Program-made: the position numbers and the translations under genes
IMG/VR virus record: IMGVR_UViG_3300043773_000773
Coordinates: 1-61,604 of that record
Reading direction: 5' to 3' (one strand)
Source: a virus
Lineage: Duplodnaviria > Caudoviricetes
DNA: 61,604 nt
In this document: positions 7,549 through 61,604 of the stretch, one piece after another
Position numbering within the stretch: position 1 is the stretch's first letter
Layout: each line of letters opens with the position of its first letter
The notes under the pieces: model-generated
What the model saw: the letters and a program-made list of their open reading frames with translations, nothing else
What the model was told of the DNA's origin: nothing
Database searches by the model: none

Positions 7549-8012
7549 TATTCCTCCTTGAGGTTCGCTATGTCGAGCAGCCGATCCTTCGGGACGAAGA
7601 ACGCTGCCCCATAACTGCCGTAGTTCTGTCGGTACTCGGGCCGCTTGGCGTCCTTGCCTCGCACCCAGCCATGTACGCGGAAGTCGTTTGGCCCGCCAGT
7701 CACCAGCACGAACGCATCGTCGTCTCTATCGCTGTCGCGCACGATGAGGTCGTAGCCATGACGGGACCGCGTCCGTATCTGAATGCTCTCGCCTATGTCG
7801 CCGCCAGCCTTGAAGGTGTTCACGCTGCCGTTCCAGTAGCGGTTAGTGGCCTTCGCGAACGCACACTCGCCAAGCGCACCCAGAATGTGAATGCTCCACT
7901 CGTCGTTGATCGGGAGCCTGTTCTGGCATCCCTTGCGCAGCGCCTCGACATTGCGAGACACGCCGACGAGGGCGGCCCGGCTCACCTCGAACCACTCCAG
8001 CGCTACGTTCAT
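7548..8012 (-). CDS. Putative PD-(D/E)XK-fold protein, distant paralogue of 7078..7548
   Basis: GALGECAF...GGDIG..QIRT...DAFVLV...GW. Confidence 0.6.
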   Translation of the reverse strand: MNVALEWFEVSRAALVGVSRNVEALRKGCQNRLPINDEWSIHILGALGECAFAKATNRYWNGSVNTFKAGGDIGESIQIRTRSRHGYDLIVRDSDRDDDAFVLVTGGPNDFRVHGWVRGKDAKRPEYRQNYGSYGAAFFVPKDRLLDIANLKEE

Positions 8013-13767: not shown

Positions 13768-14584
13768 GACTTTGAATCTACCTGTGATCGTGGAGCGCTA
13801 TCTGAACGGACGATGCGTGAGCAATGGCTACACCAACAACCTCAGGGCCGTCGCCCGGTCCTGCGGAACGATGTCAGTCGATGCCATAAATGCGTACTTG
13901 AAGCGCCGCATGGATGCCATCAAGCCAGTCACCGTTGCTACCGAGAGAGCCATGTTGGTTGGTATCTGGAGGTGGGCTTACGAAACCGGAGTAGTTAACG
14001 AGATGCCACGAGGAATCGTCAAGATCAAACCGGCGCGTAAGCCAACTAAGGCGTGGACTATAGAGCAGTGCTGTACGGGTGTCAATGGGACGTTCTCGCT
14101 GAGGGCGATCGTGCGACGGAAGAAAGTCCCGGTCGGCCTGTTCCTGCGCTGCTGGATGCTGCTGGGGTACGAGACTGGTGCGAGGATGGGGGATTTGTGG
14201 GAGATGCGGGGGGATGACATCGAGGACGGTGCGGCCCGCTGGTCGCAGCACAAGACCGGCGATCCGCATGTCAAGACGCTGTCGCCCAAGTGCATCGAGG
14301 CCGTGCAGCAGATGCTGGCGCTATCGCCGGACGGGAGGATTCTGGGCTGGGTGATGAGCGCAAACGCGGCGCGAGTGCGTATGCGGAAGTACCTGCGCAG
14401 CGTCGGCCTGAGCGGCACATCCAAGTGGCTGCGGCGATCTGGCGCCACCCACATCGAGATTGAGCATCCCGGAAAGGGCCGCCTGCACTTAGGGCATCGC
14501 ACCGTCGGGCTGGCCGAGAAGTCCTATATCGACTGGTCGCAGGTGCGCAGGGACATCCCCTGCACTCCCGTGCTACTCGAATAG
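13766..14584 (+). CDS. int: Tyrosine recombinase/integrase
   Basis: ETGAR, QHKTG, KWLRR, LGH, SY catalytic pattern; ATG at 13766. Confidence 0.88.
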   Translation: MTLNLPVIVERYLNGRCVSNGYTNNLRAVARSCGTMSVDAINAYLKRRMDAIKPVTVATERAMLVGIWRWAYETGVVNEMPRGIVKIKPARKPTKAWTIEQCCTGVNGTFSLRAIVRRKKVPVGLFLRCWMLLGYETGARMGDLWEMRGDDIEDGAARWSQHKTGDPHVKTLSPKCIEAVQQMLALSPDGRILGWVMSANAARVRMRKYLRSVGLSGTSKWLRRSGATHIEIEHPGKGRLHLGHRTVGLAEKSYIDWSQVRRDIPCTPVLLE

Positions 14585-46064: not shown

Positions 46065-46451
46065 TCAGAACGGGATCGCGGCCTCTTCGACCTCCTGCGA
46101 CTCCTCAGACGCCTCCGGCATCTCTGGCATCCCGCCAGCCGCCCGACGGGGCCAGCGAAGGCTCCGGCCCACCTCATTTGCCATTAGACGCAATGAGAAG
46201 CCCTGTGAGCCGTCTTTCTTCTGGAACGTCTCCAGAGCCACCCGGCCCGTCACAACGACCCTGTCGCCCTTCTGGAGCGCCTGAGTGACCATGTCAGCCT
46301 GCTCGTCAAAGCAGGCGACCTCCACCCACGTTGTCGGGCCGTCCTTCTTCTCCGTAGACGCCACCGAGAACGTCGCCATCTGCTTGCCGCTACGGGTCGC
46401 CTTCAACTCCGGTGCGCGGCCCACGTTGCCTGTGATTGTTGCCTCGATCAT
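46065..46451 (-). CDS. ssb: Single-stranded DNA-binding protein
   Basis: ITGNVGRAPEL..FSVA..KGDRVVVTGR; acidic tail ending IPF. Confidence 0.95.
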   Translation of the reverse strand: MIEATITGNVGRAPELKATRSGKQMATFSVASTEKKDGPTTWVEVACFDEQADMVTQALQKGDRVVVTGRVALETFQKKDGSQGFSLRLMANEVGRSLRWPRRAAGGMPEMPEASEESQEVEEAAIPF

Positions 46452-46793
46452 CGAACACCCTTTCTATCGGGAGGGGACTATACAGGCGCCCAGTATAGCG
46501 GGGTGCGCATGTACAGATACCCCCAGAGAAGAGGGGGGCCAATGAAACTGGGAAAAAATCCAGGAGGGGAACGTAATTAACGTGCGCGGCGAGTGGGGGG
46601 GCTCGGGGCTCCCGCGTTCCATCTATACGCAAACCGCGACCGCTCCACGACTTCCGCTTCACGCTCTCCGTCGAGAGGCGGAAACCAGCCCGGCGAACCC
46701 ACGAGAAACGCGGTCCATCCCCGATGCGGAGTCTGCATTGTGTCGGAGCGACGACGACGGTCGATCGTCGTGCTACTGACACGGAGCAACGTC

Positions 46794-47009
46794 ATGAGCA
46801 AACCCTGGCACCGCGAGACTTGGATCACCGTCGTCACGAAACCGGGAAAGCGGAACATCGTGTGCGGCCCATTCGACAGCACGCTCGATGCCTGCGACTT
46901 CGTATCGCTCGACTTCGACTACGAAGGCTTCACCCTTCATCCCTCCTATGAAGCGGCCGTCGCTGACGGCACGAAGATGGCGTTCGTTCCCCCTGCGGAA
47001 TCCGCCTGA
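46794..47009 (+). CDS. Early small hypothetical protein
   Basis: GGAG RBS, MSKPWHRE, 71 aa. Confidence 0.65.
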   Translation: MSKPWHRETWITVVTKPGKRNIVCGPFDSTLDACDFVSLDFDYEGFTLHPSYEAAVADGTKMAFVPPAESA

Positions 47010-47089
47010 TTCCCCGATGCGGAGTCTGTCTTTCGACGGCTGGCACGTTGCCGCTGTCGTGTCCCGTTCCTTCCTTCGAGGATCGTCCC

Positions 47090-47269
47090 ATGTTCTGTGT
47101 CGTTCGCATCACGGCATCCGGCGAGCGTCTGGCCTACACGTTCCCCACCGAACGTAAGGCCCGCTGGTACATCAACGACAACTCCGACGGCATCACGCTG
47201 TTCGTGTTGTACGACCCCGACGGTGATCGTGTGGTCGAGACTCGCTTCCCGGTGCTGATGGTGGCCTGA
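47090..47269 (+). CDS. Early small hypothetical protein
   Basis: GAGG RBS, MFCVVRIT, 59 aa. Confidence 0.65.
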   Translation: MFCVVRITASGERLAYTFPTERKARWYINDNSDGITLFVLYDPDGDRVVETRFPVLMVA

Positions 47270-47376
47270 TTTCCCGATGCGGAGTCTGGATGGTAGCGGG
47301 GCTGGCACTTCGCCTCCCCGCCTCCACCCGCACTTCGCGGGATGGTTCGATTGGTTCCTTTCTTGAGGAGATTGCT

Positions 47377-47778
47377 ATGAACGCCGACATGATGAAGAAG
47401 CTGTTCCTGTCCCTGATCGCCGATGCCGCCTCCAGCCCCGTCAAGGCGAAGGGCAAGGCGAAGGGCAAGCGTAAGGGCAACCCCGAAGCCCTTGCCAAGT
47501 GGCGTGCCGAGCAGAAGGGCAAGGCCGCTCCCGCCAAGAGCAAGGCGAAGGCAAGGCCGAAGGCCGTCGAGGTCGAGGAGGTCGAAGGCGTCGAGTGTGG
47601 TGGCGTGGAGTTCCGCAAGGGCAGCGTCACCAAGCAGGGACGCGAGTACGTGCTGATCTACGTGGGCGGTGCCTTCGCTGGGTCGCTCCGCGTCGATGAC
47701 GGCAACCTGCTCAAGGCCGCTCTCGGTGGCTTGAAGCACCGCGATGCCGTCGATGCCATCGAGCTGGCCTGCGAGTGA
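47377..47778 (+). CDS. Lys/Ala-rich histone-like early protein
   Basis: GAGGAG RBS; KAKGKAKGKRKG, AKSKAKA runs. Confidence 0.7.
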   Translation: MNADMMKKLFLSLIADAASSPVKAKGKAKGKRKGNPEALAKWRAEQKGKAAPAKSKAKARPKAVEVEEVEGVECGGVEFRKGSVTKQGREYVLIYVGGAFAGSLRVDDGNLLKAALGGLKHRDAVDAIELACE

Positions 47779-47873
47779 TCGCAGCCTGACGGTTCACACA
47801 CCACGCCCCGTTGGCTCACCGCTGACGGGGCGTTCGCCTGCACCGTCGCAGGTTTCATGTCAGGAGCATCGTC

Positions 47874-48041
47874 ATGCACGAAATGATCGGCAAGCGTATC
47901 TGCTGGGAGTGGCGGAACACCGTCCGGCACGGCGTCGTCTATTCCGTCATCGGATCGGGCGAGCACGAAATGTATCTGGTCATCGCATCTGATGGCGGCA
48001 GAACGGTTGTCGCGTGCCGCATGGCACATGTCACCGCATAG
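47874..48041 (+). CDS. Early small hypothetical protein (55 aa)
   Basis: Read manually MHEMIGKRICWEW...; AGGAG RBS; stop abuts motif copy 4. Confidence 0.65.
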   Translation: MHEMIGKRICWEWRNTVRHGVVYSVIGSGEHEMYLVIASDGGRTVVACRMAHVTA

Positions 48042-48136
48042 GCCGCTGCGGAGTCTGGGATACGGGGCTGTGCTGCCAGCCAGCCCCCAATCCTGCACTC
48101 GCGGGAAGTTGACTTCACCACAGAAAGGAAAGGCCG

Positions 48137-48355
48137 ATGACAGACCCATTCGTGATTCTGGAGAGGTATCGCAACGACATCCGCCACTGGAGCCGCATCC
48201 TCTGCGGCGACATCGTTGGGCCGCACGGCTCTCGGGCGTGGCAGGACGTAGCAGCCATGCTGGCGACAGACCTCCGGAGGTACGCCGACTACCTCGACAA
48301 CTGCCGGGAAGGCCATGTCGCTGGGCCGATTGTGTTCCCGTCTTGGGACGATTGA
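48137..48355 (+). CDS. Early small hypothetical protein
   Basis: AAGGA RBS, 72 aa, stop abuts motif copy 5. Confidence 0.65.
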   Translation: MTDPFVILERYRNDIRHWSRILCGDIVGPHGSRAWQDVAAMLATDLRRYADYLDNCREGHVAGPIVFPSWDD

Positions 48356-48478
48356 CCGCTGCGGAGTCCGGCTCATAGCGGGGAAGGCTGACGCCCCGCC
48401 TTGACCTGCACTCGCAGGACGCACCCATCGCACTTCGCGGTGGGTGTTTTCGTTTCCACGCTTCATAAGGAGCTTTCC

Positions 48479-48703
48479 ATGCCCCGTTCCAACGTGTCGA
48501 TCTTCCAGTCCCCCAAGACCCGCCTGTTCTACCTCGTCAACCTCAAGGGCGATGGTGCCGTGCATGGCGGGTACGACAGCGAGAAGGAGGCCCGCGAAGC
48601 CCGCCGCCTCCTGCCTGCCCACGAGGAGTCCTGCCGCACCGTCGAGCGGCTCATCGCCCCGCAGCCCGGCGTGGAGGACGACATCAACCCTCTCGCCCGG
48701 TGA
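48479..48703 (+). CDS. Early small hypothetical protein
   Basis: AAGGAG RBS, MPRSNVSI. Confidence 0.65.
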   Translation: MPRSNVSIFQSPKTRLFYLVNLKGDGAVHGGYDSEKEAREARRLLPAHEESCRTVERLIAPQPGVEDDINPLAR

Positions 48704-48793
48704 ATAGCCGCTGCGGAGTCTGACTTTTGCGAACGGGGCCGGTCGTCATGGTGGCGGCTGGCCCCGTTCGCGTTTCCCATGAGGAGCAATGCG

Positions 48794-49177
48794 ATGAAGC
48801 GGGAGGTGATGGAGAAGTGGGTGCATGCACTACGTCACGGCAACTACGGCCAGACGTACGGCTACCTGCGTGAGGAGTCCGACCCCATCGAAGAGCCTGG
48901 AGAGTACGCCTACTGTGCGTTGGGCGTGCTGTGCGATGTGTACGTCAAGGAGCAGTGTGATGGCGACTGGGGATCGCTGTGTCGCCCGCAGTCATACGGC
49001 GAGACGCCCCCTCCTGCCGTGATCGAGTGGGCCGGTCTTTCGTGCCGCGACCCAGATGTGAACGTGACGGCTCACGGCGAAGAAGAACACTACGAAAGCA
49101 TCAGCGAGATCAACGACGCTGGCGTGGAGTTCAGCAAGCTGGCTTCGCTCATCGAGGAGCAGTGGGAAAAGCTGTGA
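48794..49177 (+). CDS. Conserved phage hypothetical protein
   Basis: KWVHALR.G.Y.Q..YCALGVLCD..ND...F...A..IE pattern, recurrent in phages. Confidence 0.7.
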   Translation: MKREVMEKWVHALRHGNYGQTYGYLREESDPIEEPGEYAYCALGVLCDVYVKEQCDGDWGSLCRPQSYGETPPPAVIEWAGLSCRDPDVNVTAHGEEEHYESISEINDAGVEFSKLASLIEEQWEKL

Positions 49178-49257
49178 TTCCCCGCTGCGGAGTCTGTCTC
49201 TTGACCGGCGGCACGTTGCCGTCGGTGGTTCTGTGTCTCTTTCAATGAGGTGTTCCT

Positions 49258-49428
49258 ATGCGTACCCACAACCCCACCCAGTACCCGCGACTCATGCACT
49301 TCGTGTCGCTCAACGCTGCCGCCAAGCAGCTTGGTGCCGCAACCAAGCGGCAGTTCGTGGCCGACCTCCGCACGCTGTCTCACCGTGAGCGGCGGGATGT
49401 TGCCGACCTCGTGAAGAAGGAGGGCTGA
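49258..49428 (+). CDS. Early small hypothetical protein (56 aa)
   Basis: Read manually MRTHNPTQYPR...; GAGGT RBS. Confidence 0.6.
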   Translation: MRTHNPTQYPRLMHFVSLNAAAKQLGAATKRQFVADLRTLSHRERRDVADLVKKEG

Positions 49429-49430
49429 AC

Positions 49431-49625
49431 ATGGAGAAGGAGTTGAACTACATGCGAATGGCGTTCTGGGCGGACGCCGCAGACTCAAACGAACCGCTGC
49501 CTCCGGGCTTGGCTGCGTCAATGGCGAACGACCTCGACGCCATCGCCAGAGACATCGCCCTGTTCTATCTGGAAAACGGCAGGTCGCCACACCTTGAGGA
49601 GGGCGGCGCATGCCATTCGTCATGA
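49431..49625 (+). CDS. Early small hypothetical protein
   Basis: 64 aa, AAGGAGG upstream. Confidence 0.6.
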   Translation: MEKELNYMRMAFWADAADSNEPLPPGLAASMANDLDAIARDIALFYLENGRSPHLEEGGACHSS

Positions 49626-49783
49626 CGTACGGCGGCGGCAGATACACCTCCGTCGCGTGGTACCCGACCCATGCGGAAGCACAGGCAGAGTGCGACCGCA
49701 TCAAGCGTGCCGGTTCATGGAGCGGGATGCCGCCCAAAGTTGAACCGGATTCCCCGCAATCCACCGCTGCGGAGTCTGCGTGA
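49610..49783 (+). CDS. Early small hypothetical protein (57 aa)
   Basis: MPFVMTYGGG...; GAGGAGG RBS; reads through motif copy 8. Confidence 0.55.
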   Translation: MPFVMTYGGGRYTSVAWYPTHAEAQAECDRIKRAGSWSGMPPKVEPDSPQSTAAESA

Positions 49784-49905
49784 TGGGCAACAAGTGGAAC
49801 GACCAGTGGTGGACGCTGGTCAAGGCAGAGAAGCACAAGGAGGAGCGTCGTCTTAGGGCGGCACGCAAGAGAGCCAAGCGTGTCGGCCGCATCAGGCAGC
49901 GGTAA
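49783..49905 (+). CDS. Basic 40-aa peptide
   Basis: TGATG coupling; MGNKWNDQWW...RAARKRAKR; stop just before motif copy 9. Confidence 0.5.
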   Translation: MGNKWNDQWWTLVKAEKHKEERRLRAARKRAKRVGRIRQR

Positions 49906-49934
49906 TCGCCGCTGCGGAGTCTGGTTCATACGGC

Positions 49935-49969
49935 AAGGCCGTCCCAACGTGGGGCGGCCTTTTCTTTTT
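49935..49969 (+). terminator. Terminator-like hairpin just after motif copy 9
   Basis: AAGGCCGTCCCA-ACG-TGGGGCGGCCTT then TTCTTTTT. Confidence 0.6.
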
Positions 49970-49987
49970 CACTGAGGAGACAGGCAC

Positions 49988-51235
49988 ATGCCTACCGAGA
50001 ACACCAACACGGACGAAGTGGTGCGGGATGAGTACGGGTTCGATGAGAACGGCATCCACACCAACGGCACGGAGTTCAACGACGCCGGGTTCGACCAACA
50101 TCACCTTCACCGCGACACGGACACCGAGTTCGATGAGTCCGGCCGCACCATCAACGGAACGCGGTACAACGTCGATGGCTACGACGTCGAGGGCTACGAC
50201 CGCAACGGCTACGACGAGGATGGGTACGACAGTGACGGCTGGGACCGCGACGGCTACAACACCGAAGGCTACGACGCCGACGGCTATGACTGCGACGGGC
50301 AGGACTCGTGCGGCAATACCCGCTGCGACAACGGCGACTGCGACGACGACTACTGTGACTGCCGCACTCGCGGGTCGGACGAACTGCTCGACTCCGATGC
50401 CTGCGTGCTGGAGGAAACACGCTGGTGCCAGTACCGCTACAAGCGGACGGCCCAACTCGTAGCCTTCGAGTTCGAGTGCATCGCCCACGACTGCGCCAAC
50501 GACGGGGCCGAGCGGCTGATGGTGCCGTTCGATGAGGCGTACGACGAACTGATCGGTCACACCGCAGGCTGCGGCTCGATCGCCAAGCACGACGGTAGCC
50601 TGCCGACCGGCAAGGGCGTCGAGTTCGTCACCGTGCCGATGCTTCTCGACGAACACCGGCGCGTGCTGGCGAAGGCATTTCCCGGCGGTCGGCTCGGCGG
50701 CGGGCATGTCAGTGCGTGGAACCACACCAAGTGCGGCATGCACGTGCATCTCAACCGCCGCAGCATGGGCAACCTCACGCTCGGCAAGCTCCTGTGCTTC
50801 ATGCACCAGAGTTGCAACCGCTCCTTCCACATCGACATCGCTGGCCGTGAGACAACCTACGCCAAGTTCCAGGGGCATCGCTCGTTCGTGAGCAACGGCC
50901 TGCCCGTGAAGGCGGATCACGGCGAGAAGTATTCGGCCCTCAACATCAAGCCGCACACCGTCGAGTTCCGCATCTTCCGCCCGTCCACGCAGCTTCCCAC
51001 GATCCTCAAGAACCTGTGCTACTGCCTTGCGGCGCGTGAGTTCTGCGTGAGCGTGTCTGCCATGCGGTCGAGCATCACGTGGCAGGAGTTCCTCAAGTGG
51101 CTCGGCACCACCGATGCCCGGCTCCGCTACCGCGAGCTTGATTCGTGGCTCCGCAACCGGCAGTCGGACTACGGCATGTACTACCGCGCCCACGCCAAGC
51201 CGCTGCCCAAGCCCAAGCCGCTCGGCGCAGCCTGA
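49988..51235 (+). CDS. Putative amidoligase (COOH-NH2 ligase) with N-terminal GYDxx repeats
   Basis: FEFE, DGSL, GVEFVT, CGMHVH, KYSALN, TVEFRIFR motifs. Confidence 0.85.
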   Translation: MPTENTNTDEVVRDEYGFDENGIHTNGTEFNDAGFDQHHLHRDTDTEFDESGRTINGTRYNVDGYDVEGYDRNGYDEDGYDSDGWDRDGYNTEGYDADGYDCDGQDSCGNTRCDNGDCDDDYCDCRTRGSDELLDSDACVLEETRWCQYRYKRTAQLVAFEFECIAHDCANDGAERLMVPFDEAYDELIGHTAGCGSIAKHDGSLPTGKGVEFVTVPMLLDEHRRVLAKAFPGGRLGGGHVSAWNHTKCGMHVHLNRRSMGNLTLGKLLCFMHQSCNRSFHIDIAGRETTYAKFQGHRSFVSNGLPVKADHGEKYSALNIKPHTVEFRIFRPSTQLPTILKNLCYCLAAREFCVSVSAMRSSITWQEFLKWLGTTDARLRYRELDSWLRNRQSDYGMYYRAHAKPLPKPKPLGAA

Positions 51236-51281
51236 TCCTCTCGTCCCTTCATCCTTTCATCTCTCCACAGGAGCAATCCAC

Positions 51282-52196
51282 ATGTGCCTTGCAATCCACA
51301 AGCCCGCCGAGACTCGCCCCGACTGGATCGCCTACGCCAACGGCTACCGCAGCAACCCGCACTCGTGGGGCTTTGCCGCAATCCACGACGGACACCTCGT
51401 TGTCATGCACGGACTCGGCTCGTTCGATGAGTTCCGCCTCGCCTTCGAGCCGTATGCCGACTGCCAAGCCATCATCCACTACCGATGGGCCACGCATGGC
51501 AAGACCGACCTCGACAACTGCCACCCGTTCATGGTCAGCAACAGCCTCGCCATGATCCACAACGGCATCGTCAGCATCGAACGCAACGTGAACAGCGACC
51601 GCTCCGACACGTGGCACTTCAACGAGCTAATCCTCAAGCCCATGCACGAGCGCGACCCGGACTTCTTCCTGCGTGGCGACATGATCTACACGCAGGAGAT
51701 GGCTCACGCCGACAGCAAGTTCGTGTTCCTCCGGGCCGACGGCGACTTCGCCATCTGGAACAGCGGCGAGGGTGAGGTTGCGGCCGACGGCCACTGGTAC
51801 AGCAACTCTTCGCACAAGTCGCTGGCCCGCATCGGCTACGCGACCAGCAAGTACACGGACTCGACTGGCTGGCGCGACATGTCGCCCAGCGCCCGCTCCC
51901 CGCTGACGTACGCCAGCCGCAAGGCAGACGATGCCGACCGGCGGTACGAGCAGGACGACCTCATCGGCGGCTGCTCGCTCGAGGCCAGCGTCGAGCCGGA
52001 GACTGGCGTCACGCTCATCCGCGACCCGTACTACGGCGAGTACGACCCGATCGAGCATGCCGACGACGACGAGGAGCAACTGGCCGACATGATGTGGTCC
52101 GACCTCCGCACCTATGGCATCTCATCCGGGACGCTCAAGGAGGTCTACCACATGTTCGGCAACTGGGGCATCCAGGCTCTGTACGACTGCATGTAA
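51282..52196 (+). CDS. Class II (Ntn) glutamine amidotransferase
   Basis: Met-Cys start, N-P-H-S-W-G, HYRWATHG, NCHPF, HNG, SDT. Confidence 0.9.
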   Translation: MCLAIHKPAETRPDWIAYANGYRSNPHSWGFAAIHDGHLVVMHGLGSFDEFRLAFEPYADCQAIIHYRWATHGKTDLDNCHPFMVSNSLAMIHNGIVSIERNVNSDRSDTWHFNELILKPMHERDPDFFLRGDMIYTQEMAHADSKFVFLRADGDFAIWNSGEGEVAADGHWYSNSSHKSLARIGYATSKYTDSTGWRDMSPSARSPLTYASRKADDADRRYEQDDLIGGCSLEASVEPETGVTLIRDPYYGEYDPIEHADDDEEQLADMMWSDLRTYGISSGTLKEVYHMFGNWGIQALYDCM

Positions 52197-52230
52197 TTCC
52201 CCGCCACACACCCACGCAAGGAGGCGTGAC

Positions 52231-53560: not shown

Positions 53561-53801
53561 TGGGATCGTTCACTGTTCTTGTTTCCAATATCTCCGATTA
53601 CTGGGAGGTGCGTGACGAAGATGGCGATCTGGTTGCCGACTACGTTCCGGCCAGCGACATAGCCAAGCTGTTCGCTGCTGCCCCTGAAATGCTGGAGGCA
53701 CTCAAGTCTGTCGCCAGCAAGCACTCGCATATTGAGACAGCCAATATGCCCGAATGGCTTGACGCTGTTGAAGATGCCATCGCCAAAGCAGAAGGGAGGG
53801 G
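53534..53801 (+). repeat. 20-bp direct repeat GCCAAAGCAGAAGGGAGGGG at 53534-53553 and 53782-53801
   Basis: Exact match at the 3' ends of two consecutive genes. Confidence 0.9.
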
Positions 53802-53811
53802 CGATGCCTAG
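53557..53811 (+). CDS. Hypothetical protein with AAAPEMLEALK motif
   Basis: Common phage early-gene motif LFAAAPEMLEAL...AIAKAEG. Confidence 0.7.
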   Translation: MMGSFTVLVSNISDYWEVRDEDGDLVADYVPASDIAKLFAAAPEMLEALKSVASKHSHIETANMPEWLDAVEDAIAKAEGRGDA

Positions 53812-54160
53812 CGTCACGGACCGGGAGCGTGCGGTCCTGCATCTGATCGCACGCTCCATCGAATCGAGCGGATGCCAGCCGTCGTACCGGGACATAGCCC
53901 AGCACTTCGGATGGGCCAGCCTCAACTCGGTGGCGCAGGTTTCTCGCAGCCTGCGCAAGAAGGGCGTGGTCGCCATTGAAGGCGCCCGCGCATGGTCGTT
54001 TGAGTGGACGAACTACCTCAAGGAGACAAGCAATGACGCTGAAGGAACTGATGGATCGTGTTCTCGCCATGCTTCCCGATGCCATGTTCGACGAGACGGG
54101 CGACGGGGAGGTGATCGTCATGACCGGCAAGCGCGCTCACCCAGAGGAGGACTGGAATGA
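53804..54160 (+). CDS. LexA-type winged-helix DNA-binding protein lacking peptidase domain
   Basis: TDRERAVL..I...GCQPSYRDIAQHFGWASLNSV....L.KKG. Confidence 0.8.
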   Translation: MPSVTDRERAVLHLIARSIESSGCQPSYRDIAQHFGWASLNSVAQVSRSLRKKGVVAIEGARAWSFEWTNYLKETSNDAEGTDGSCSRHASRCHVRRDGRRGGDRHDRQARSPRGGLE

Positions 54161-54197
54161 AGGGTCGCTTCCACTTCAACCTATCCTTGACGACTAG
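54033..54197 (+). CDS. Small acidic hypothetical protein
   Basis: AAGGAG RBS, MTLKELMD. Confidence 0.55.
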   Translation: MTLKELMDRVLAMLPDAMFDETGDGEVIVMTGKRAHPEEDWNEGSLPLQPILDD

Positions 54198-54234
54198 GTG
54201 TAGAACTGTACACTCACCACACAGGAGAGAGGGG

Positions 54235-54420: not shown

Positions 54421-55290
54421 ATGTCACGAGACAACATCACGCTCGGCGCTGGTCTTGGCGGCATCTGCCTCATGTCCACCCGCAGGCAGCGGAGGGACAC
54501 GGTCTACGATGCCGCCGTCCTGGCTGGCATCGAGCGGTTCGTACCTCCCACCCCAGCCGCAACCACCACGCTGCGGTCGGCCATGCTGGAGGAGGGCGCT
54601 CGCCTGTACGGCAGGCGGCGCAAGCAGCCCATCACTGTGCGGCAGCTCGATGAGCCGAACTCATTCGAGTGTGTGCGAGTCGTGCCAAGCGTGGCCCGCA
54701 ACGACTACCGCTTCCTGTTCTCGGCAAGCATCGACCCGCAGTGGCAGGTCACGATCCTCGACGCCAGCATGGACGTAAGCCGCAACGTGCTGTGGGATGC
54801 CGTCACCCAGCAAGTCGATGTGATGCGGCTGTACCTACCCGGCCCTGTCATCTCGCAGGTACTTGTCAAGGGGCTGCGCTCGTGGGGTGCGCTGTCGCTG
54901 AAGGACGACGGCGGCGCATGGTTCCTCGACGGCCGCTACCTTGAGAAGTATCGTGACTTCGCCCGCCACGCGCGGGGGGTCGACGGCCCCAAGTTTACGG
55001 TGACGCAGTTCGAGATCGGCTCCGACCCTGACACGGTGGCGCACGTACTCGACTGCCTGCACGAAGAGGTCACGGCTGGCGTGCAGGAGATCATGTCCGA
55101 TGTGATGGCAGCGGAGGGTGGCATGTCCGATCGCTCGATCAACTGCCGCACCGAGCGGGCCAACACGTTCCTCGCAAAGGTGCAGCAGTACGAGAGCCTG
55201 CTCGGCAGGCCGCTGCCCGAACTGACCGATGCTGTCGAGCAGACCAAGCAGGCGCTCGCCGTGAATCGCCTGCTGGCTTCGTCCATCTGA
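54421..55290 (+). CDS. DUF6744/DUF3150-like protein of AAA-VWA module
   Basis: DDGGAWF motif, helical C-terminus (YESLLG), context upstream of AAA and VWA genes. Confidence 0.55.
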   Translation: MSRDNITLGAGLGGICLMSTRRQRRDTVYDAAVLAGIERFVPPTPAATTTLRSAMLEEGARLYGRRRKQPITVRQLDEPNSFECVRVVPSVARNDYRFLFSASIDPQWQVTILDASMDVSRNVLWDAVTQQVDVMRLYLPGPVISQVLVKGLRSWGALSLKDDGGAWFLDGRYLEKYRDFARHARGVDGPKFTVTQFEIGSDPDTVAHVLDCLHEEVTAGVQEIMSDVMAAEGGMSDRSINCRTERANTFLAKVQQYESLLGRPLPELTDAVEQTKQALAVNRLLASSI

Positions 55291-55312
55291 ACCACCACAC
55301 AAGGAGAATGCA

Positions 55313-55777
55313 ATGGGATACTACGTTCGCACTACCGGCAGCAACTTCTATGTTGCGCAGAGCAAGAAGAACGCAGCGTACGAAGCGCTGTGCGCACTGA
55401 ACCAGAGGGACGACCTCAAAACCGGCGGGTCGTTTGGCGGCAACCTCAGCGGAGACAGCCCGCGCCCTGCTGGCCTCGATCACCACCCGAGCCGGTGGTT
55501 CTCGTGGATGGCGGCTGACTACCCGAGCAAGTGCAAAGACCTGAAGCAGGTGCTTGAGGAAGTCGGCTTCGATGTGGTCGAGGACGAGGCGGGCAACGTC
55601 ACGGGCCTGCACTACGACAGCAAGACCGGGCATGAGTCTCTGTTCCTGTCGGCACTCGCCCCTTTCGTGCGAGACGGCTCGCACATCGACTGGCAGGGCG
55701 AAGAGGGCGAGCACTTTCGGTACGAGTTTTCTGGCGGCCGCATGCTGGAGCGTGACGGACGCATCGTCTGGGCTTGA
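55313..55777 (+). CDS. Hypothetical protein
   Basis: MGY start, LAPFVRDGSHIDWQGEEGE motif, AAGGAG RBS. Confidence 0.7.
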   Translation: MGYYVRTTGSNFYVAQSKKNAAYEALCALNQRDDLKTGGSFGGNLSGDSPRPAGLDHHPSRWFSWMAADYPSKCKDLKQVLEEVGFDVVEDEAGNVTGLHYDSKTGHESLFLSALAPFVRDGSHIDWQGEEGEHFRYEFSGGRMLERDGRIVWA

Positions 55778-55806
55778 TACACACTCACACTAGGAGACTA
55801 TTCATC

Positions 55807-56910
55807 ATGGCTCGTGCAACTCTCGGAAACGATCCGGCTTTCATCGCTGCGCAGGTTGTTCCCACGCTCGTGCGTGGCGGCACCGGCGTCGGCAAGTCCT
55901 CCACGTGGGAGGCACTGGCTCGCGCGCTGGAGCGGACGTTCGTTCCGCTGCTTGGCGCTACTCACTTGCCAGAGGACTTCTCTGGCTATCCAACCCCTGA
56001 CCACAAGGCTCGCGTCACACGCATGATGGCTTCGTCGTGGGTGGAGAAGACGCGGGACGGCAACGCCCTCGTTCACGTGGACGAGGTGACGAACGTGGCG
56101 CCCGCCACTCAAGCCGGACTGCTCTCCGTAATCTCGGAGCGGCGAGTGGGCGACGAGGTGATGCCAGAGTCCACGATCGTCGTGGGTTCGTGCAACCCAC
56201 CGGAACTGTGCCCCAACGCAGTGCCGCTGTCGCCCGCCATGCGGGCGCGGTTCTTCCACCACGACTGGGTGGTGGACTACGAACACTGGTTCGAGGGGCT
56301 GCGTGCCGGGTGCAACTGGACAGCGCCCGAGTTCCCCGTCGTGCCGGAGCATTGGGTCGACATGCTCCCGCAGTTCGGCTCGCTGGCTGAGGCATTCCTC
56401 CGCTCGGCACCAGACTGCCGGGAGAAGCTGCCGACCGACGACGAAACCATGTCGTTCCCCAACCCCCGCACGTGGACGTACCTCGTCAAGTGCTTCGCCG
56501 CTGCGCAAGCCTGCGGCTTCGAGCGCAAGCACCCGATGTACCGGGCGCTGGCAATGGGCTGCGTCGGCGAGGCGGCGGGTGGCGAGTTCCTGCGGTACTG
56601 GCACAACCTCGACCTCGCCAACCCGGAGTCCTTCCTGTCTGGCGACGAGAAGTATGAGTACGAGAAGCGACCAGACGCCAACATCTGCCTGCTCACCGGG
56701 CTGGTGCGGTGCCTGCGTGACAACACCAGCAAGGAGCGGTGGCTCAACGCTGCGAAGGTGTTCATCACCATCGGCGAGCAGGAGATTGAGTCGTTCCTCA
56801 TGCAGTTCAAGTCCTTCTGGAACCCCGTCGGCAAGGGTGGCGTGCGGCCCGATGGCTGGTCGCCGCCGAAGGATGTTCTCGCCAAGCTGATGGGCCTCGT
56901 TCAGTCCTGA
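55807..56910 (+). CDS. MoxR-type AAA+ ATPase
   Basis: GGTGVGKS, VHVDE, CNP, SPAMRARF, NPRTW. Confidence 0.88.
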   Translation: MARATLGNDPAFIAAQVVPTLVRGGTGVGKSSTWEALARALERTFVPLLGATHLPEDFSGYPTPDHKARVTRMMASSWVEKTRDGNALVHVDEVTNVAPATQAGLLSVISERRVGDEVMPESTIVVGSCNPPELCPNAVPLSPAMRARFFHHDWVVDYEHWFEGLRAGCNWTAPEFPVVPEHWVDMLPQFGSLAEAFLRSAPDCREKLPTDDETMSFPNPRTWTYLVKCFAAAQACGFERKHPMYRALAMGCVGEAAGGEFLRYWHNLDLANPESFLSGDEKYEYEKRPDANICLLTGLVRCLRDNTSKERWLNAAKVFITIGEQEIESFLMQFKSFWNPVGKGGVRPDGWSPPKDVLAKLMGLVQS

Positions 56911-56932
56911 CCACACACACAAGGAGAATCCC

Positions 56933-58402
56933 ATGACGCCACGACAACTGCTTGGGCAGGCGAGGGTACACACCTTCGAGTACCTGCCCTACCTCGCAAG
57001 CTATGTCTATAGCCTGCGCGAACATGAGACGCCCGGCATCGGCACCGCTGCGGTAGACGATGCGGGCAATCTCTACTGGTGCCCGGAGTACATCACTTCG
57101 ATCGGCAAGGAGACGGCCTCCTACGTGATCCTGCACGAGACGCTCCACCTCATCTTCGATCACCACAAGAGGGCGATCGAGATGCTGGGCGAAGACATGA
57201 CGGAGACGGAGCGGTACATCTGCAACATCGCCGCCGACCTCGTGATCGAGCAGACGCTCCACATGATGCGGCACCTGCGACCAGAGGGTGCCGTCTGTCT
57301 TGGCGCAAAGGTTCCCAAGCTCGGGATCAAGCTCGACTTCCCAGAGAACAAGTCGATGCAGGAATACTACCGGCTCATCACCGAGAAGATGAAGTCCAAC
57401 CAACAGCAACAACCGGAGGGCAGCGATGGAGACGATGAGCAGCAACAGGGTTCGGGCGAGTCGCCCGACGGGAGTGGCAGCGGCGATGGCGATCGCAATG
57501 ACAACAACGGCGGACAGGATATGGGAGCAGGTGACGACGGAGGCGGCTCGGGGAACGACGATGACGGCACTGAGGCGGACGGCAAGGAAGATGCGTCTGG
57601 CAACGGAGCGGGGTCGCCTTCGGCTGGGCAGGGCAAGGCACCGCAAGCACCCTGCTCGCCCGGCTCCGGCGGGTCGTGCGCCGACGGGCAACGGCGGCCC
57701 TATGAAGTGGAGAGCGACGGGTCTTGGGAAGCGTACGGCGAAGACATGGCCGCCGCGAAAGCCGAAGAAGCGATCGCAGAGATAGAGGCATCCAAGCCCG
57801 GCACTGTACCCGGCAACATCAAGGAGGCACTCAAGCAGAAGCTGCGGCCCCAGCCAGACCCGTTCGATCAGCTTCGCTCTGCGGTCTGCACAAGCGTGGC
57901 CTCGCCGGTCGGGGGCCGGGAGTTCACCCACCGCAGGCTCTCCCGCAAGCAACCGCCGGGAGACAACGAGCCGCTGCTGCACGGCCGCATCTGCATGCAG
58001 CCGAAGGCAGTCGTCATCGTTGACACCAGCGCATCCATGATGCTCCGGGAAACGAAGGCGAAGGCGCTCTCGGTCATCGGGCAGGGGCTGCGCAAGCTGC
58101 ATCGAGTCAAGGTGTACTGCGCCGACACCCACGTGCGGAGCAACGCCATCGTCTCCACGACCAAGCGGTTCGAGTGGTACGGCGGCGGCGGCACCGACAT
58201 GGCGAGGGCGATCGAGGAGGTGGACCGTACCGAGAAGCCGGACTCCATCATCCTCGTGACCGACGCCGAGACGGACTGGTGCGCAGCCAAGCCACGCGCC
58301 CGCGTGGTCGTGGCCTACACCGGCAAGCCCGACTCGCACTGGCACAACGCCATCCCCAAGTGGTGCCGCACTGTGGTGCTGGAGAAAGGAGGGGCAGCAT
58401 GA
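56933..58402 (+). CDS. VWA-domain metallopeptidase (DUF2201-like)
   Basis: HETLH, NIAAD, acidic Gly linker, DTSASM MIDAS, GGGGTD, TDAE. Confidence 0.88.
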   Translation: MTPRQLLGQARVHTFEYLPYLASYVYSLREHETPGIGTAAVDDAGNLYWCPEYITSIGKETASYVILHETLHLIFDHHKRAIEMLGEDMTETERYICNIAADLVIEQTLHMMRHLRPEGAVCLGAKVPKLGIKLDFPENKSMQEYYRLITEKMKSNQQQQPEGSDGDDEQQQGSGESPDGSGSGDGDRNDNNGGQDMGAGDDGGGSGNDDDGTEADGKEDASGNGAGSPSAGQGKAPQAPCSPGSGGSCADGQRRPYEVESDGSWEAYGEDMAAAKAEEAIAEIEASKPGTVPGNIKEALKQKLRPQPDPFDQLRSAVCTSVASPVGGREFTHRRLSRKQPPGDNEPLLHGRICMQPKAVVIVDTSASMMLRETKAKALSVIGQGLRKLHRVKVYCADTHVRSNAIVSTTKRFEWYGGGGTDMARAIEEVDRTEKPDSIILVTDAETDWCAAKPRARVVVAYTGKPDSHWHNAIPKWCRTVVLEKGGAA

Positions 58403-58899
58403 AGAACGTGACTCTAGAGACGATGCCGCCGCCAGACTACCAGCCGTTCACCCATGACACGTGGGTAGAACAGGCATGGGTTCCGGCGTATCCGCTGTTC
58501 GCCAAGCGGGCGAGGCGATTCGCCATCAGGCTGCGCCGGGAACTGGCCGACATGAGCATGCCCGCCAGACTGATATTGCAAAGCGCCCCAGAGCTTCCGA
58601 TCCACCAGATACGCCTGGCCCCGCAGTCGCTTCAACTGATCGTCATCGCAGACAGCCCTACGCCCGGATACGGAACCGGCCTGTGGGTCTGGGTTGCGAT
58701 GCACAGCAACGAGTCGCGCCGCCACTTCGGCATCGACTACGACTACGGGCTGACCCACTGCCAGTACCTTGCCACGCGATGCGGCGCCAATATCAGCGAC
58801 CCATACTTCAACGACTACATGCGTTGGTGTTGCGCCAGAGACGCCATCAACGGCATCAAGGAGTGGGTCATGTCACATCTCTACATCCCTGGAATCTAG
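58399..58899 (+). CDS. Hypothetical protein
   Basis: ATGA-coupled start MKNVTLE. Confidence 0.6.
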   Translation: MKNVTLETMPPPDYQPFTHDTWVEQAWVPAYPLFAKRARRFAIRLRRELADMSMPARLILQSAPELPIHQIRLAPQSLQLIVIADSPTPGYGTGLWVWVAMHSNESRRHFGIDYDYGLTHCQYLATRCGANISDPYFNDYMRWCCARDAINGIKEWVMSHLYIPGI

Positions 58900-58910
58900 G
58901 AACCCTACCC

Positions 58911-59096
58911 ATGTACTCATTTCAGAAGCGCCTCGACATCATGCTCGGCGCCGAAGCGACTCCCTTCATCTGGTTCTGTCGGGCATGCTGGTTTGCATTC
59001 GCCTGCTACACGGCAAGCAACCCAGCCGCCACCTACTACATCGCGCCGCACCTGTGGGTGATCGGCGTTGCCCTGTACTACTTCTACCCCGCCTAA
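58911..59096 (+). CDS. Small two-TM membrane protein
   Basis: MYSFQKRL..FIWFCRACWFAF..LWVIGVALYYF. Confidence 0.55.
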   Translation: MYSFQKRLDIMLGAEATPFIWFCRACWFAFACYTASNPAATYYIAPHLWVIGVALYYFYPA

Positions 59097-59105
59097 GGAG
59101 AAGCC

Positions 59106-59846
59106 ATGCCTATCGTCTATGCCTACGGTCGCGCCAGTACCGGGCGTCAGACCATCACCGAATCGCACCAGCGGGCCACGTGCGAAGAGCACATCCAGCG
59201 GGCAATCCTCCCCGCCGGGTTCACCTACGGCGGCTGGCTCTATGACTCAGCCACCAGCGGCAGCAAGCCCATGTTCGAGCGGGACGAGGGCCGCAAGCTG
59301 TGGGCACTCGTCCAGCCAGGAGACAAGATCGTGTGGGCCAAGCTCGACCGTGCATTCCGCTCGGTCGTGGACGCAGCCCAGACGATGGCGCTGCTGCACC
59401 GCAAGGATGTGACGTTCTCGTCGCTGGACTTGGGCCTCGACACCAGCACGCCGATCGGTAGGTGCGTGTTCACTATCCTGTCTGCGTTCGCAGAGCTAGA
59501 GCTTGAGTTCATCCGGCAGCGCACCCGCGATAGCCTTCGCGCCAAGCGGGCCGATGGCAAGCCGTACAGCAAGCACGCCCCCATCGGCTGGAAGAAGATC
59601 GGCACCGGCAAGGACTCGTACTACATGCCAGACCCGCTCGAGAGGTCGCAGGTAGCCGAGATGCTGGCCCTGCGGCAGTCTGGCGCCAGCCTGGAGCGCA
59701 TCACCAATCACATGTACAACGTGACGCGCAGCAACGGCAAGCGGTGGAACATCAACTCCATCTCGCAGGCGCTCAGGGCAGCAAAGGCTCGCTTTGCAAA
59801 AGAGTTTGCAGCATCTCCAAAGCGGCGGCGAGCCGTCGCCGTATAG
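59106..59846 (+). CDS. Serine recombinase (resolvase/invertase family)
   Basis: YGRAST, SG, WAKLDRAFRS, FAELE..IRQRT. Confidence 0.92.
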   Translation: MPIVYAYGRASTGRQTITESHQRATCEEHIQRAILPAGFTYGGWLYDSATSGSKPMFERDEGRKLWALVQPGDKIVWAKLDRAFRSVVDAAQTMALLHRKDVTFSSLDLGLDTSTPIGRCVFTILSAFAELELEFIRQRTRDSLRAKRADGKPYSKHAPIGWKKIGTGKDSYYMPDPLERSQVAEMLALRQSGASLERITNHMYNVTRSNGKRWNINSISQALRAAKARFAKEFAASPKRRRAVAV

Positions 59847-60558: not shown

Positions 60559-60864
60559 CTACTTCGGCACCTTCCGTGCCCGAACCTGTCGCTTTGTGAC
60601 ACTTTTCGCCACTGTGTGTGGAGTCGTTTCGCGGAGCCAATCGGCCTGCGTCTCTTCCTCGCCGTACCGCATCGCGGCCTGGGCATCGAAGGCGTCGGCC
60701 CGCCCCAGGTCGAACCACGCAGGATAGTGGCGAAGGATGCGTCGGGCTTCCTCGCGGATGTCGCGGCGGATGCCCTTGATGCCGCCAGCGTATGGCGAGG
60801 CCAGCCTCTGGAGGAACGACTTGGCGTAGATCACCGCTCGCGTCCGTTCGTCTGGCATCGTCAT
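60559..60864 (-). CDS. BPSL0761-like small protein, allele B
   Basis: MTMPDERTRAV...FL..L...IREEARRILRHYP signature. Confidence 0.75.
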   Translation of the reverse strand: MTMPDERTRAVIYAKSFLQRLASPYAGGIKGIRRDIREEARRILRHYPAWFDLGRADAFDAQAAMRYGEEETQADWLRETTPHTVAKSVTKRQVRARKVPK

Positions 60865-60897
60865 CTGTAAGAAGTCCTGGCGTGTCTTTCTTCCGCT

Positions 60898-61101
60898 TTA
60901 TCGGAGCGTATCCGCGTATACCGCCGGTATATCGGTGGTTGCCAAATCAAAGCCACTGCCCCGTCCCCTCGTCGCCAAGCCGTTGTCGGGCTGCGTTACG
61001 CCTGGGGGCTGCCTCGCCTGCCCCGTCGCGGCACCGTAGGGCGCGGTGCCAGGACGGGCGAGGTTGTGTACGGTGTCTGTACTCAATCTATGTAGCGTCA
61101 C
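60898..61101 (-). CDS. Possible small ORF (allele B)
   Basis: GTG start inside the motif; weak coding signal. Confidence 0.3.
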   Translation of the reverse strand: MTLHRLSTDTVHNLARPGTAPYGAATGQARQPPGVTQPDNGLATRGRGSGFDLATTDIPAVYADTLR

Positions 61102-61412: not shown

Positions 61413-61604
61413 GGCCGATCCTTTCGGGTGGTCATTCTACCCGACAGGCAAACGAGCGCAACGCTCGCCGTGACGCTACACTGTGGGTGTAGAGCTGTCA
61501 GCGAAGCAGACCCTTCAGGCCAGCCGCGACATCCGGGCCGAGCAACTCCAGCACCCTCGCATCGACCTGCGCCTGCGTGTAGTCGCCAGCAGCGTCGTAC
61601 TTCT

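Follow-up and report, generated by a model that had tools for sequence, protein, structure and literature searches.

The stretch of DNA analysed here (the window, taken at its full length of 61,604 bp) is the whole of the IMG/VR virus record IMGVR_UViG_3300043773_000773, the near-complete genome of an uncultivated lake phage of the Caudoviricetes (Duplodnaviria), which is rated 97% complete. Genes on the minus strand occupy positions 974-46451 and encode SSB, capsid, terminase, portal and tail proteins, three giant proteins, an Erf annealase, a RecE-like exonuclease and a helicase. Genes on the plus strand run from 46794 onward, and this arm is headed by an array of a short repeated motif, the subject of this work, which begins about 270 nucleotides (nt) from the divergently read SSB gene. 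The plus arm continues with eleven small open reading frames (ORFs), a conserved gene for a protein of 415 amino acids (aa), a class-II amidotransferase-like gene and a gene for a LexA-type winged-helix protein; these are followed by genes for a 289-aa protein, a MoxR-type ATPase, a DUF2201 protein and, at the end of the arm, a small serine recombinase.

The motif, CCG(A/C)TGCGGAGTC(T/C)G, is present in nine copies, all on the plus strand, between 46721 and 49923 (Table 1), where 0 are expected by chance. A search with the pattern CCGMTGCGGAGTCYG found no copy elsewhere in the 61,604-bp record or on its reverse strand, and 100 dinucleotide-preserving shuffles gave 0 matches. The nine positions listed in the original prediction, which had been made from the letters of the window, were exact, and so was its account of where the copies lie: seven follow a stop codon by 0-4 nt (gaps of 4, 4, 1, 0, 4, 4 and 3 nt), the copy at 46721 opens the array, and that at 49764 falls within the last codons of ORF 49610-49783. 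As was also described, position 4 is A in the first three copies and C in the last six. The palindrome CCGC-T-GCGG that had been pointed out in the core is found in the six C-type copies and not in the A-type copies; since the A-type copies break it and a sister lineage has no such palindrome in its version of the element, it is not supported as the essential feature. A degenerate copy reported near 46990 does exist (CCCCTGCGGAATC, 2 mismatches). Matches with at most 3 mismatches number 61, against 56.3 +/- 6.1 expected, and since this degenerate class is thus at chance level the copy carries no weight. A literature search for the letters of the motif returned only unrelated primer sequences.

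Table 1. Positions in the window of the motif copies, the hairpins behind them, and the genes and promoters referred to in the text
Feature	Position	Strand	Remarks
Motif copy 1	46721..46735	+	A-type; opens array; 58 nt before ATG 46794
Motif copy 2	47014..47028	+	A-type; 4 nt past stop 47007-47009
Motif copy 3	47274..47288	+	A-type; 4 nt past stop 47267-47269
Motif copy 4	48043..48057	+	
Motif copy 5	48356..48370	+	ends CCG; abuts stop 48353-48355
Motif copy 6	48708..48722	+	4 nt past stop 48701-48703
Motif copy 7	49182..49196	+	4 nt past stop 49175-49177
Motif copy 8	49764..49778	+	within last codons of ORF 49610-49783; GGAG 8 nt before ATG 49783
Motif copy 9	49909..49923	+	3 nt past stop 49903-49905; ahead of 415-aa gene
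Leader hairpin, copy 1	46739..46783	+	-25 kcal/mol, z -2.2; conserved with compensatory changes in relatives
Leader hairpin, copy 2	47034..47059	+	GGCACGTTGCC family; z -2.7
Two leader hairpins, copy 3	47291..47341	+	first stem covaries between relatives
Leader hairpin, copy 4	48058..48093	+	
Three leader hairpins, copy 5	48373..48447	+	z -4.0; last (48421-48447) terminator-like with T-run
Leader hairpin, copy 6	48729..48771	+	20 bp; z -6.2
Leader hairpin, copy 7	49204..49226	+	
Hairpin past copy 9	49935..49961	+	strong, terminator-like, with TTTTCTTTTT; 12 nt past copy 9; in all six genomes compared
Eleven small ORFs, 40-133 aa	46794..49905	+	no Pfam family; most without homologues in relatives
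Starts of the small ORFs	46794, 47090, 47377, 47874, 48137, 48479, 48794, 49258, 49431, 49610, 49783	+	
415-aa conserved gene	49988..51235	+	behind last motif copy; bait for relatives
LexA-type winged-helix DNA-binding protein	53774..54160	+	candidate motif binder, by correlation only
Canonical sigma70-type promoter TTGACG-16-TACACT	54187..54214	+	contrast class; position conserved in eight genomes
Canonical sigma70-type promoter TTGACA-17-TATAGT	14057..14085	-	contrast class; before recombination module
1152-aa conserved giant protein	14573-18031	-	no Pfam family
Small serine recombinase	59106-59846	+	Pfam/PHROGs

The motif proved to be part of a longer conserved element of about 28 nt, which is followed by a hairpin. 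In a profile of 143 distinct copies from the window and its relatives, positions outside the search pattern were also constrained, with T at -3 in 99 copies, T13 in 124, G14 in 118, T17 in 108, a pyrimidine at position 20 (Y20) in 129 and a purine at position 21 (R21) in 133. Few changes were tolerated within the core: C1 to T in 10 copies, C4 to A or G in 11, A10 to C in 6, C7 to T in 2 and G3 to T in 2. The gene context was scored on 141 distinct copies. In 132 of them a Shine-Dalgarno (SD) sequence, a start codon and an ORF of 30 codons or more came next, no further than 150 nt away (median 61), compared to 74 of 141 random positions, and 95 copies lay no more than 15 nt behind the stop codon of an ORF, compared to 25 of 141 random positions. 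Within the window, eight of the nine copies are followed by a leader of 58-108 nt and then by a ribosome site and an ATG, and copy 49764 has its ATG within 5 nt. Two copies in one relative (L164, also G003; positions 7698 and 7751) lie only 53 nt apart, and the 40-aa ORF that the window carries between them is cut there to 9 codons by an internal deletion; a motif copy can thus stand without a gene.

All eight leaders of the window contain a stable hairpin, which starts 0-12 nt past the motif and scores z -1.7 to -6.2 against shuffles. The leader hairpins covary, which indicates that the plus-strand RNA is under structural selection. Only two of the hairpins (48421-48447 and 49935-49961) are terminator-like with a T-run, and a T-run stands behind the hairpin in about 2-3 of the 8 leader families. 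Short leaders, consisting of the motif, about 10 nt, an SD sequence and an ATG, were found in relatives G002 (40159), G001 (61500), G004 (4531) and G005 (4944), and the copy at 4935 in G004 has arisen within the coding part of a small, conserved gene, at 109 nt from the gene that follows. These copies demonstrate that the hairpin is not obligatory, and they fit a promoter. The motif pairs with the next 90 nt no better than with random phage DNA (mean -14.2 versus -15.3 kcal/mol); as it has no preference for pairing with its flanks, it acts as a linear sequence and not as a structure. Two specific pairings were considered and discarded: a downstream 'anti-motif', hinted at by alifold in two leader families, was not general, and an upstream GATTYC that could pair with GGAGTC matched at 5 or 6 of 6 positions in only 34 of 143 copies, with T preferred over C at -4 though C pairs better. 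Likewise, a reading of GAGTC as a CcrM-type GANTC site was dropped, as GANTC is neither avoided nor enriched (248 observed versus ~274 simulated) and the site is lost in CGTC-type copies.

The exact 15-mer was found clustered in eight other IMG/VR contigs, and the five of these that were fetched whole are syntenic with the window at roughly 65-86% nucleotide identity. Counted as a 13-nt core with at most one mismatch, the copies in relatives were again strand-specific and oriented like the early genes of each contig, with 12 forward and 0 reverse in G002, 11 and 0 in G003, 9 and 0 in G004, 8 and 0 in G005, and 1 and 11 in G001, whose contig is inverted; a control pattern read backwards gave 0. 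Of 18 loci fetched via the 415-aa gene, 17 carried 3-14 forward and 0-1 reverse copies in the early arm, even at 27-37% protein identity. At least three copies were present in 20 of 44 loci fetched via the ATPase; the other 24 are loci without the upstream region, loci of more distant lineages, or L230, which has a variant motif.

Lineages that lack the exact motif carry versions of their own. Sister genome G006, whose terminase is 65% and whose ATPase is 35% identical, has no motif copy and instead has five copies of GGTTGAGGC-TCGTTCGGCAGGTG-nnTTGTG, the first of them degenerate, which precede the same leader hairpins (e.g. GGCGGCACGTTGCCGC) and the same conserved genes. A lineage at 55-58% ATPase identity carries cccTTG(T/A)TTTCAGGGG(T/C)CGGCGAGTTCTTTnTAGAG plus a hairpin, in six copies in L238 and five in L240, and the version in L241 is TTGTTTTCAGGCACTGGAGAACATC, in three copies. 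In L230 (ATPase 70%) all seven copies read CCGATCCGGAGTC, with G changed to C at motif position 6, and in G003 GGCGTC replaces GGAGTC in about half of the copies. The order common to all versions is ...CGG(n)SAG..., a T-rich stretch and a hairpin. A homologous element thus changes in concert within genomes and differs between lineages. The local homogenisation proposed from the A- and C-type copies of the window is therefore plausible, given that concerted variants extend genome-wide in L230 (7 of 7 copies) and to about half of the copies in G003. Concerted, lineage-specific change of this kind is expected of a signal whose reader evolves with the phage or the host, and not of a host signal that is universal.

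The relatives differ in their small ORFs but share the genes that begin with the 415-aa gene. In BLASTN comparisons of the window with seven relatives, 35 of the 45 block starts in 46700-50000 fell at -15 to +3 nt of a motif start (chance ~5%), and the blocks continue through the leader and stop close to the ATG, 46-129 nt further on. The comparison of relatives that had been proposed as a check thus found cassette differences beginning at the motif. For instance, the motif and leader of copy 4 (48043-48105) are 84-98% identical in five relatives in which the ORF behind them has no homologue; motif plus leader are here better conserved than the coding sequence that they serve. Ten contig joints were found in four other lake metagenomes, and 9 of the 10 'to' ends lie within 12 nt of a copy. 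One 7.5-kb contig has 160 other bases exactly in place of ORF 46794-47009, and five contigs reach copy 9 and then diverge. A precise, well-flanked deletion from motif to motif was not seen in the four metagenomes. The joints show relatives that share the motif and diverge there, and not excision within one population. The phage encodes its own Erf annealase and RecE-like exonuclease. Since the same 15-28 nt and similar leaders stand before unrelated ORFs, the units can serve as homology linkers.

No host-type promoter was found to accompany the motif. Among the 143 copies there was no TAnnnT at a fixed distance, TTG stood upstream in 1, and a scan for consensus promoters found no site at any copy, in agreement with the earlier observation that sigma70 boxes are missing. 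A promoter in which the block forms the spacer between sigma70 boxes was suggested by a TTG in G006, L230 and L238 and was rejected, as the TTG is absent from the main group. Promoters of extracytoplasmic function (ECF) sigma factors have a -35 box (GGAAC-like) 16-17 nt upstream of a short -10 box (CGT/GTC-like). No conserved block stands 16-17 nt upstream of GTC in the motif, where positions -16 to -7 carry at most 0.4 bit. Thus, of the proposal that a single-block promoter read by an ECF sigma heads the cassettes, the sigma factor is not supported; what is supported is that the motif behaves like a gene-expression signal, being strand-specific, intergenic and followed in 132 of 141 copies by an SD sequence, a start and an ORF. 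The same genomes keep canonical sigma70-type promoters (Table 1), so that the host enzyme has ordinary specificity and the motif constitutes a second class of signal. The canonical promoter at 54187-54214 has a variable spacer and a -10 box that reads TACACT, TATACT or TATATT across the eight genomes; in four genomes this box lies only ~9-10 nt before the predicted gene start.

The element is real and strongly conserved, a regulatory cassette that is specific to its lineage within a novel family of uncultivated phages. We infer that its motif is the core of a lineage-specific transcription-start signal that would not be read by the housekeeping sigma factor alone, and we give about an even chance to the view that it is a promoter-plus-leader cassette read by a co-evolving factor and doubling as a linker for the shuffling of cassettes, much as in T4-like phages. 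A unit would run from the stop of the previous ORF through the ~28-nt element (T at -3, CCGCTGCGGAGTCTG, a T-rich stretch and a pyrimidine-purine (Y-R) step ~7 nt past the motif) to the hairpin, the SD sequence with its ATG and the small ORF. The RNA would start just before the GC-rich hairpin, which would thus lie at or near the RNA 5' end and protect it. The reader might be a phage-encoded sigma-like factor, an activator or a cryptic polymerase, evolving together with the phage lineage, and the units could be used by the phage Erf and exonuclease or by host recombination to swap, lose and gain ORFs. A promoter is ranked first on account of the copy within a coding region, the copies with short leaders, the layout of block, T-rich stretch and Y-R step, and the lineage-specific concerted changes. 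More tentatively, and on the whole doubtfully, the element may represent a promoter class of its own in a widespread family of lake phages, with a reader that current profiles do not recognise, a specificity that has switched several times, and units that form the joints for an exchange of 'host-takeover' genes.

Several observations weigh against the promoter. In all six genomes compared, a terminator-like hairpin with a T-run lies no more than 12 nt past the last copy, and the hairpin past copy 9 should stop transcripts that begin at this copy's own start, unless it is overridden. Three of the 11 array ORFs (47874, 49431 and 49610) have no motif copy of their own, and relatives have copies ahead of the ATPase and other genes that are missing in the window; together these suggest that single copies are dispensable. 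Most of the contig joints have short flanks (20-59 nt) and may only reflect relatives that share the motif. No RNA runs with near-identical DNA for 46400-51300 are listed. The gene context is about as compatible with RNA cleavage as with a start signal. Finally, the reader itself has proved elusive. ORFs were scanned against Pfam (58), PHROGs (26) and NCBIfam (45), a set that does not take in the individual ORFs of the relatives with a completeness of 100%; the scanned ORFs matched no family of RNA polymerases or sigma factors, which agrees with the original prediction that no phage RNA polymerase is evident. A scan for aspartate motifs (DxDGD/DFDxD) picked out only a non-conserved acidic stretch of a 1257-aa protein, a Foldseek search with the model of the 1152-aa protein gave no significant match and no polymerase, and the model of the 289-aa protein (predicted local distance difference test score, pLDDT, 90) is alpha/beta and not sigma-like.

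Other searches for a reader were directed at individual proteins, and a sequence search of the PDB for a polymerase or sigma factor was blank. The 1152-aa family has at least 90 metagenomic relatives, most of them 50-83% identical, and its model (pLDDT 80) is mostly helical. A second look with VIA gave Z scores of up to 5.4, chiefly over a helical hairpin of 60 residues, and a weak likeness to podovirus core/ejection proteins (PhiM1 8vb2_A, Z 4.9 over 193 residues; T7 9jyy_I, Z 4.9; E1004 9vvp_O, Z 4.7). The 1257-aa protein is fast-evolving and so does not look like an enzyme, and a protein atlas search with it was blank. The 289-aa protein, encoded beside the ATPase, occurs in all lineages save the two most distant loci and diverges fast; its local match to XisI-like excision factors (probability 0.92-1.0 over 68-94 residues) has a template modelling (TM) score of only 0.18-0.20 on the query, and no fold match to the protein was convincing. 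The LexA-type protein, together with the 58-aa gene behind it, is found in the main group, L229 and L230, all of which have CGGAGTC-type motifs; the two genes were not found in G006 or in the sequenced stretches of L238-L241, which carry other elements. Weak LexA-type matches occur also in L243 and L248, which are without the motif. The apparent co-occurrence of LexA-type gene and motif is a lead, one that is confounded by relatedness.

Other readings of the motif account for part of these data. It could be a signal for RNA processing, whereby a long early RNA from upstream of 46721 is cut in the U-rich stretch by a sequence-specific endoribonuclease of phage or host, to yield per-gene mRNAs with a protective hairpin. 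This deserves consideration but is unlikely. The position of 95 of the 141 copies right behind stop codons, the U-rich single-stranded spacer at a fixed distance before a stable hairpin, the GGAG within the motif and the covariation of the leader hairpins all suit cleavage; furthermore, the ~270 nt with conserved blocks upstream of copy 1 give room for a start, and the terminator-like hairpin past the last copy suits the end of an early transcript. However, no nuclease candidate was present among the scanned ORFs, 46452-46720 contains no sigma70-like site, and the motif forms no conserved structure with its flanks. A cut at 4935 in G004 would destroy the mRNA of a conserved gene, and a host enzyme would leave the lineage-specific concerted changes unexplained. 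Somewhat less probable again is a regulator site, an operator or 'stoperator', at which a phage protein such as the LexA-type protein would bind every copy and shut off or license transcription of the early arm, as an early-to-middle switch or in immunity. The copies are asymmetric sites of 13-15 bp in one orientation and in short intergenic gaps, like stoperators, and each lineage has its own consensus, as in heteroimmune phages; the LexA-type gene tracks CGGAGTC-type motifs and belongs to a motif-headed operon in several relatives, and the small serine recombinase could point to a temperate phage or a plasmid-like existence. Yet the co-occurrence is confounded by relatedness, and motif-free L243 and L248 have weak LexA-type matches; an operator needs a promoter, and no host-type one flanks the copies, which are limited to the first 3-10 kb of one arm and not spread genome-wide. 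Nor would such a site explain why the distance to the hairpin is fixed or why a T-rich/Y-R tail is present.

We consider it very improbable that the motif is a site of integron-like recombination, the other possibility raised in the original prediction, at which the serine recombinase, the sole candidate, would cut and join so that ORF cassettes move as circles. Cassette content does differ between relatives with boundaries at the motif, the motif stands behind stop codons as attC does behind integron genes, the recombinase is conserved in all lineages, and the adjoining 289-aa protein has its XisI-like local match. The array is nevertheless unlike an integron: Pfam and PHROGs flagged no tyrosine integrase among the scanned ORFs, an imperfect inverted repeat of the attC kind is missing, the motif is no more complementary to its downstream flank than to random DNA, and the dyad has just 3-4 bp per arm, is broken in A-type copies and is absent in G006. 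Shared cassettes keep largely the same order among relatives, breakpoints often fall at an ATG or stop and not at one fixed phosphodiester bond, and the four metagenomes held no well-flanked precise motif-to-motif deletion. Hardly to be expected either is another strand-specific DNA signal, such as a site for programmed single-strand nicks, or one at which polymerase pauses or an antitermination factor is loaded so that the polymerase can read through the hairpins. Programmed nicks are a feature of phiKMV-like, tf/LUZ24-like and T5 phages, and ops/RfaH and nut are examples of antitermination sites. The strict strand specificity and the invariance of the sequence are in line with such a signal, G at +10 and Y-R at +20/+21 resemble the consensus pause signal, and some of the hairpins that follow are terminator-like. 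But nick motifs need no fixed place between a stop codon and a leader hairpin, a T-run behind the hairpin is seen in only ~2-3 of 8 leader families, and no NusG/RfaH-like or Q-like protein was among the scanned ORFs. These readings are not exclusive, as a promoter can also bind a regulator and act as a recombination linker.

Compared with known systems, the proposed promoter has its nearest counterpart in the promoter-early stem-loop (PeSL) cassettes of T4-like phages (Arbiol et al. 2010, PMC2839356; Comeau et al. 2014, PMC4122927). As described in these two papers, PeSLs are repeated cassettes that extend from an upstream stop codon to a downstream ATG in a variable region of ORFans, as is the case here, and they contain a stem-loop, as do all eight leaders of the window, with covariation. 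In both systems the breakpoints of insertions, deletions and replacements lie at the cassettes, which outlast the flanked ORFs in conservation. According to the same papers, PeSLs have strong sigma70-like -35/-10 boxes, whereas the lake-phage element has none, and their stem-loop, placed inside or ahead of the promoter, halts transcripts that arrive from upstream, whereas the lake-phage hairpins come after the block, in the presumed leader. The promoter and terminator activity of PeSLs and their mini-circles are described there as proven at the bench, while the promoter of the lake-phage unit is putative; concerted change between lineages is, against the PeSLs as portrayed in these papers, a feature of the lake-phage element.

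Promoters of the T7/T3/SP6 group are single blocks of ~20-28 nt in one orientation, with a specificity part, an A/T-rich part and a purine. The lake-phage element resembles them as a single oriented block before many genes, with a specificity block, a T-rich stretch and Y-R, and relatives differ by few concerted base changes (7 of 7 copies in L230). It differs in that no single-subunit RNA polymerase family was found among the scanned ORFs, and in that the signal occupies what is presumably the earliest region, a part of the genome that the host enzyme transcribes in T7. Promoters of N4-type virion polymerases are hairpins with a stem of 5-7 bp and a 3-nt loop; the motif has only CCG/CGG (3 bp), its pairing with the flanks is not enriched, and the sister element has no dyad. 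N4-type phages also have a giant virion RNA polymerase; among the lake-phage proteins of 1152, 1257 and 686 aa, the one that was modelled (1152 aa) gave no match to a polymerase. The stoperators of Cluster A mycobacteriophages (e.g. L5) are asymmetric, oriented, intergenic sites of ~13 bp with a lineage-specific consensus, distributed over both arms. The motif shares with them the asymmetry, the orientation with transcription, the short intergenic gaps near stop and start codons and the lineage-specific consensus, but its copies lie within 3.2 kb in the window and within ~10 kb of one arm in relatives, at a fixed distance to the leader hairpin. The RNase III sites between T7 early genes are long irregular hairpins, and RegB cuts GGAG in T4 early mRNAs at sites that are SD sequences. 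Both systems are like the array in being inter-cistron early signals, with single-gene messages, hairpins at the junctions and, for RegB, the GGAG present in the motif; the array differs in its invariant linear 15-mer and in that each gene keeps a separate SD sequence. Integron attC sites are imperfect inverted repeats of 57-141 bp, folded from the bottom strand and recognised by the tyrosine integrase IntI. Repeats behind the stops of short ORFs of unassigned function in a one-directional array recall integrons, but no IntI-type integrase was found among the scanned ORFs, there is no inverted repeat, and the units have their own ribosome sites and probably their own start signals.

If the promoter reading is true, this phage family must carry or recruit an as yet unrecognised factor that redirects transcription, and the lineage-specific versions of the motif would offer a direct handle on this reader through co-variation and binding. 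Beyond the T4-like phages, the array also provides a clear case from nature in which regulatory cassettes surpass the genes under their control in conservation and lie at the points where genes are exchanged. The 15-mer is a precise metagenome marker for the early regions of this family, a phage group without a cultivated relative.

Near-identical DNA was found in lake and freshwater metagenomes only, and in one lake run (X5) the phage is present at a depth of about 42; at the DNA level no deposited phage matched over more than 127 bp, the best terminase match among deposited phages was 23% identical, and the 1152-aa protein matched none of them. A collection of bacterial genomes contained just two contigs of metagenome-assembled genomes (MAGs) with a relative of the 1152-aa protein; each of these MAGs has one copy of the 13-mer, which is taken as chance level. 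Searches of the window found no Rfam family and no tRNA. The last 950 bases of the record repeat the first 780 at ~88% identity: positions 1-295 and 591-778 match 60658-60952 and 61432-61604, with an indel between. The genome is probably circular or terminally redundant and closed over two strain variants, and the true length suggested by the end repeat is ~60.7 kb. Direct terminal repeats in two relatives lie at different places of the genome and are therefore uninformative on the physical ends.

Further features were noted in the vicinity of the array and elsewhere. The divergent gap between the SSB gene and the first copy contains a block, TGGGAAAAAATCCAGGAGGGGAACGTAA, at 46530-46570 that is conserved in four genomes. 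At 52194-52204, past the stop of the amidotransferase-like gene, TAATTCCCCGC matches the usual upstream flank and bases 1-4 of the motif, after which the likeness ends; a lost motif copy may have left this relic. The 415-aa gene and, behind it, the gene for the class-II glutamine amidotransferase-like protein lie at 49988-52196 on the plus strand. In the 415-aa protein the N-terminus is Cys-rich and carries an acidic DGYD-repeat, and the motifs ExE, HxH and EFR are invariant; we take these features, under an unconfirmed label, to resemble those of 'amidoligase' enzymes. A plus-strand module at 54421-59846 (the 289-aa protein, the MoxR-type AAA ATPase, the VWA/metallopeptidase-like DUF2201 protein and the serine recombinase) is present in most lineages examined, down to 31% ATPase identity, although the two loci at the greatest distance yielded no 289-aa member. 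On the minus strand, the 489-aa ORF at 974-2443 contains at least six copies of GTTGAACGTCGC-type words at spacings of ~48-54 nt and longer, which indicates that its protein is internally repetitive, and is poorly conserved among relatives.

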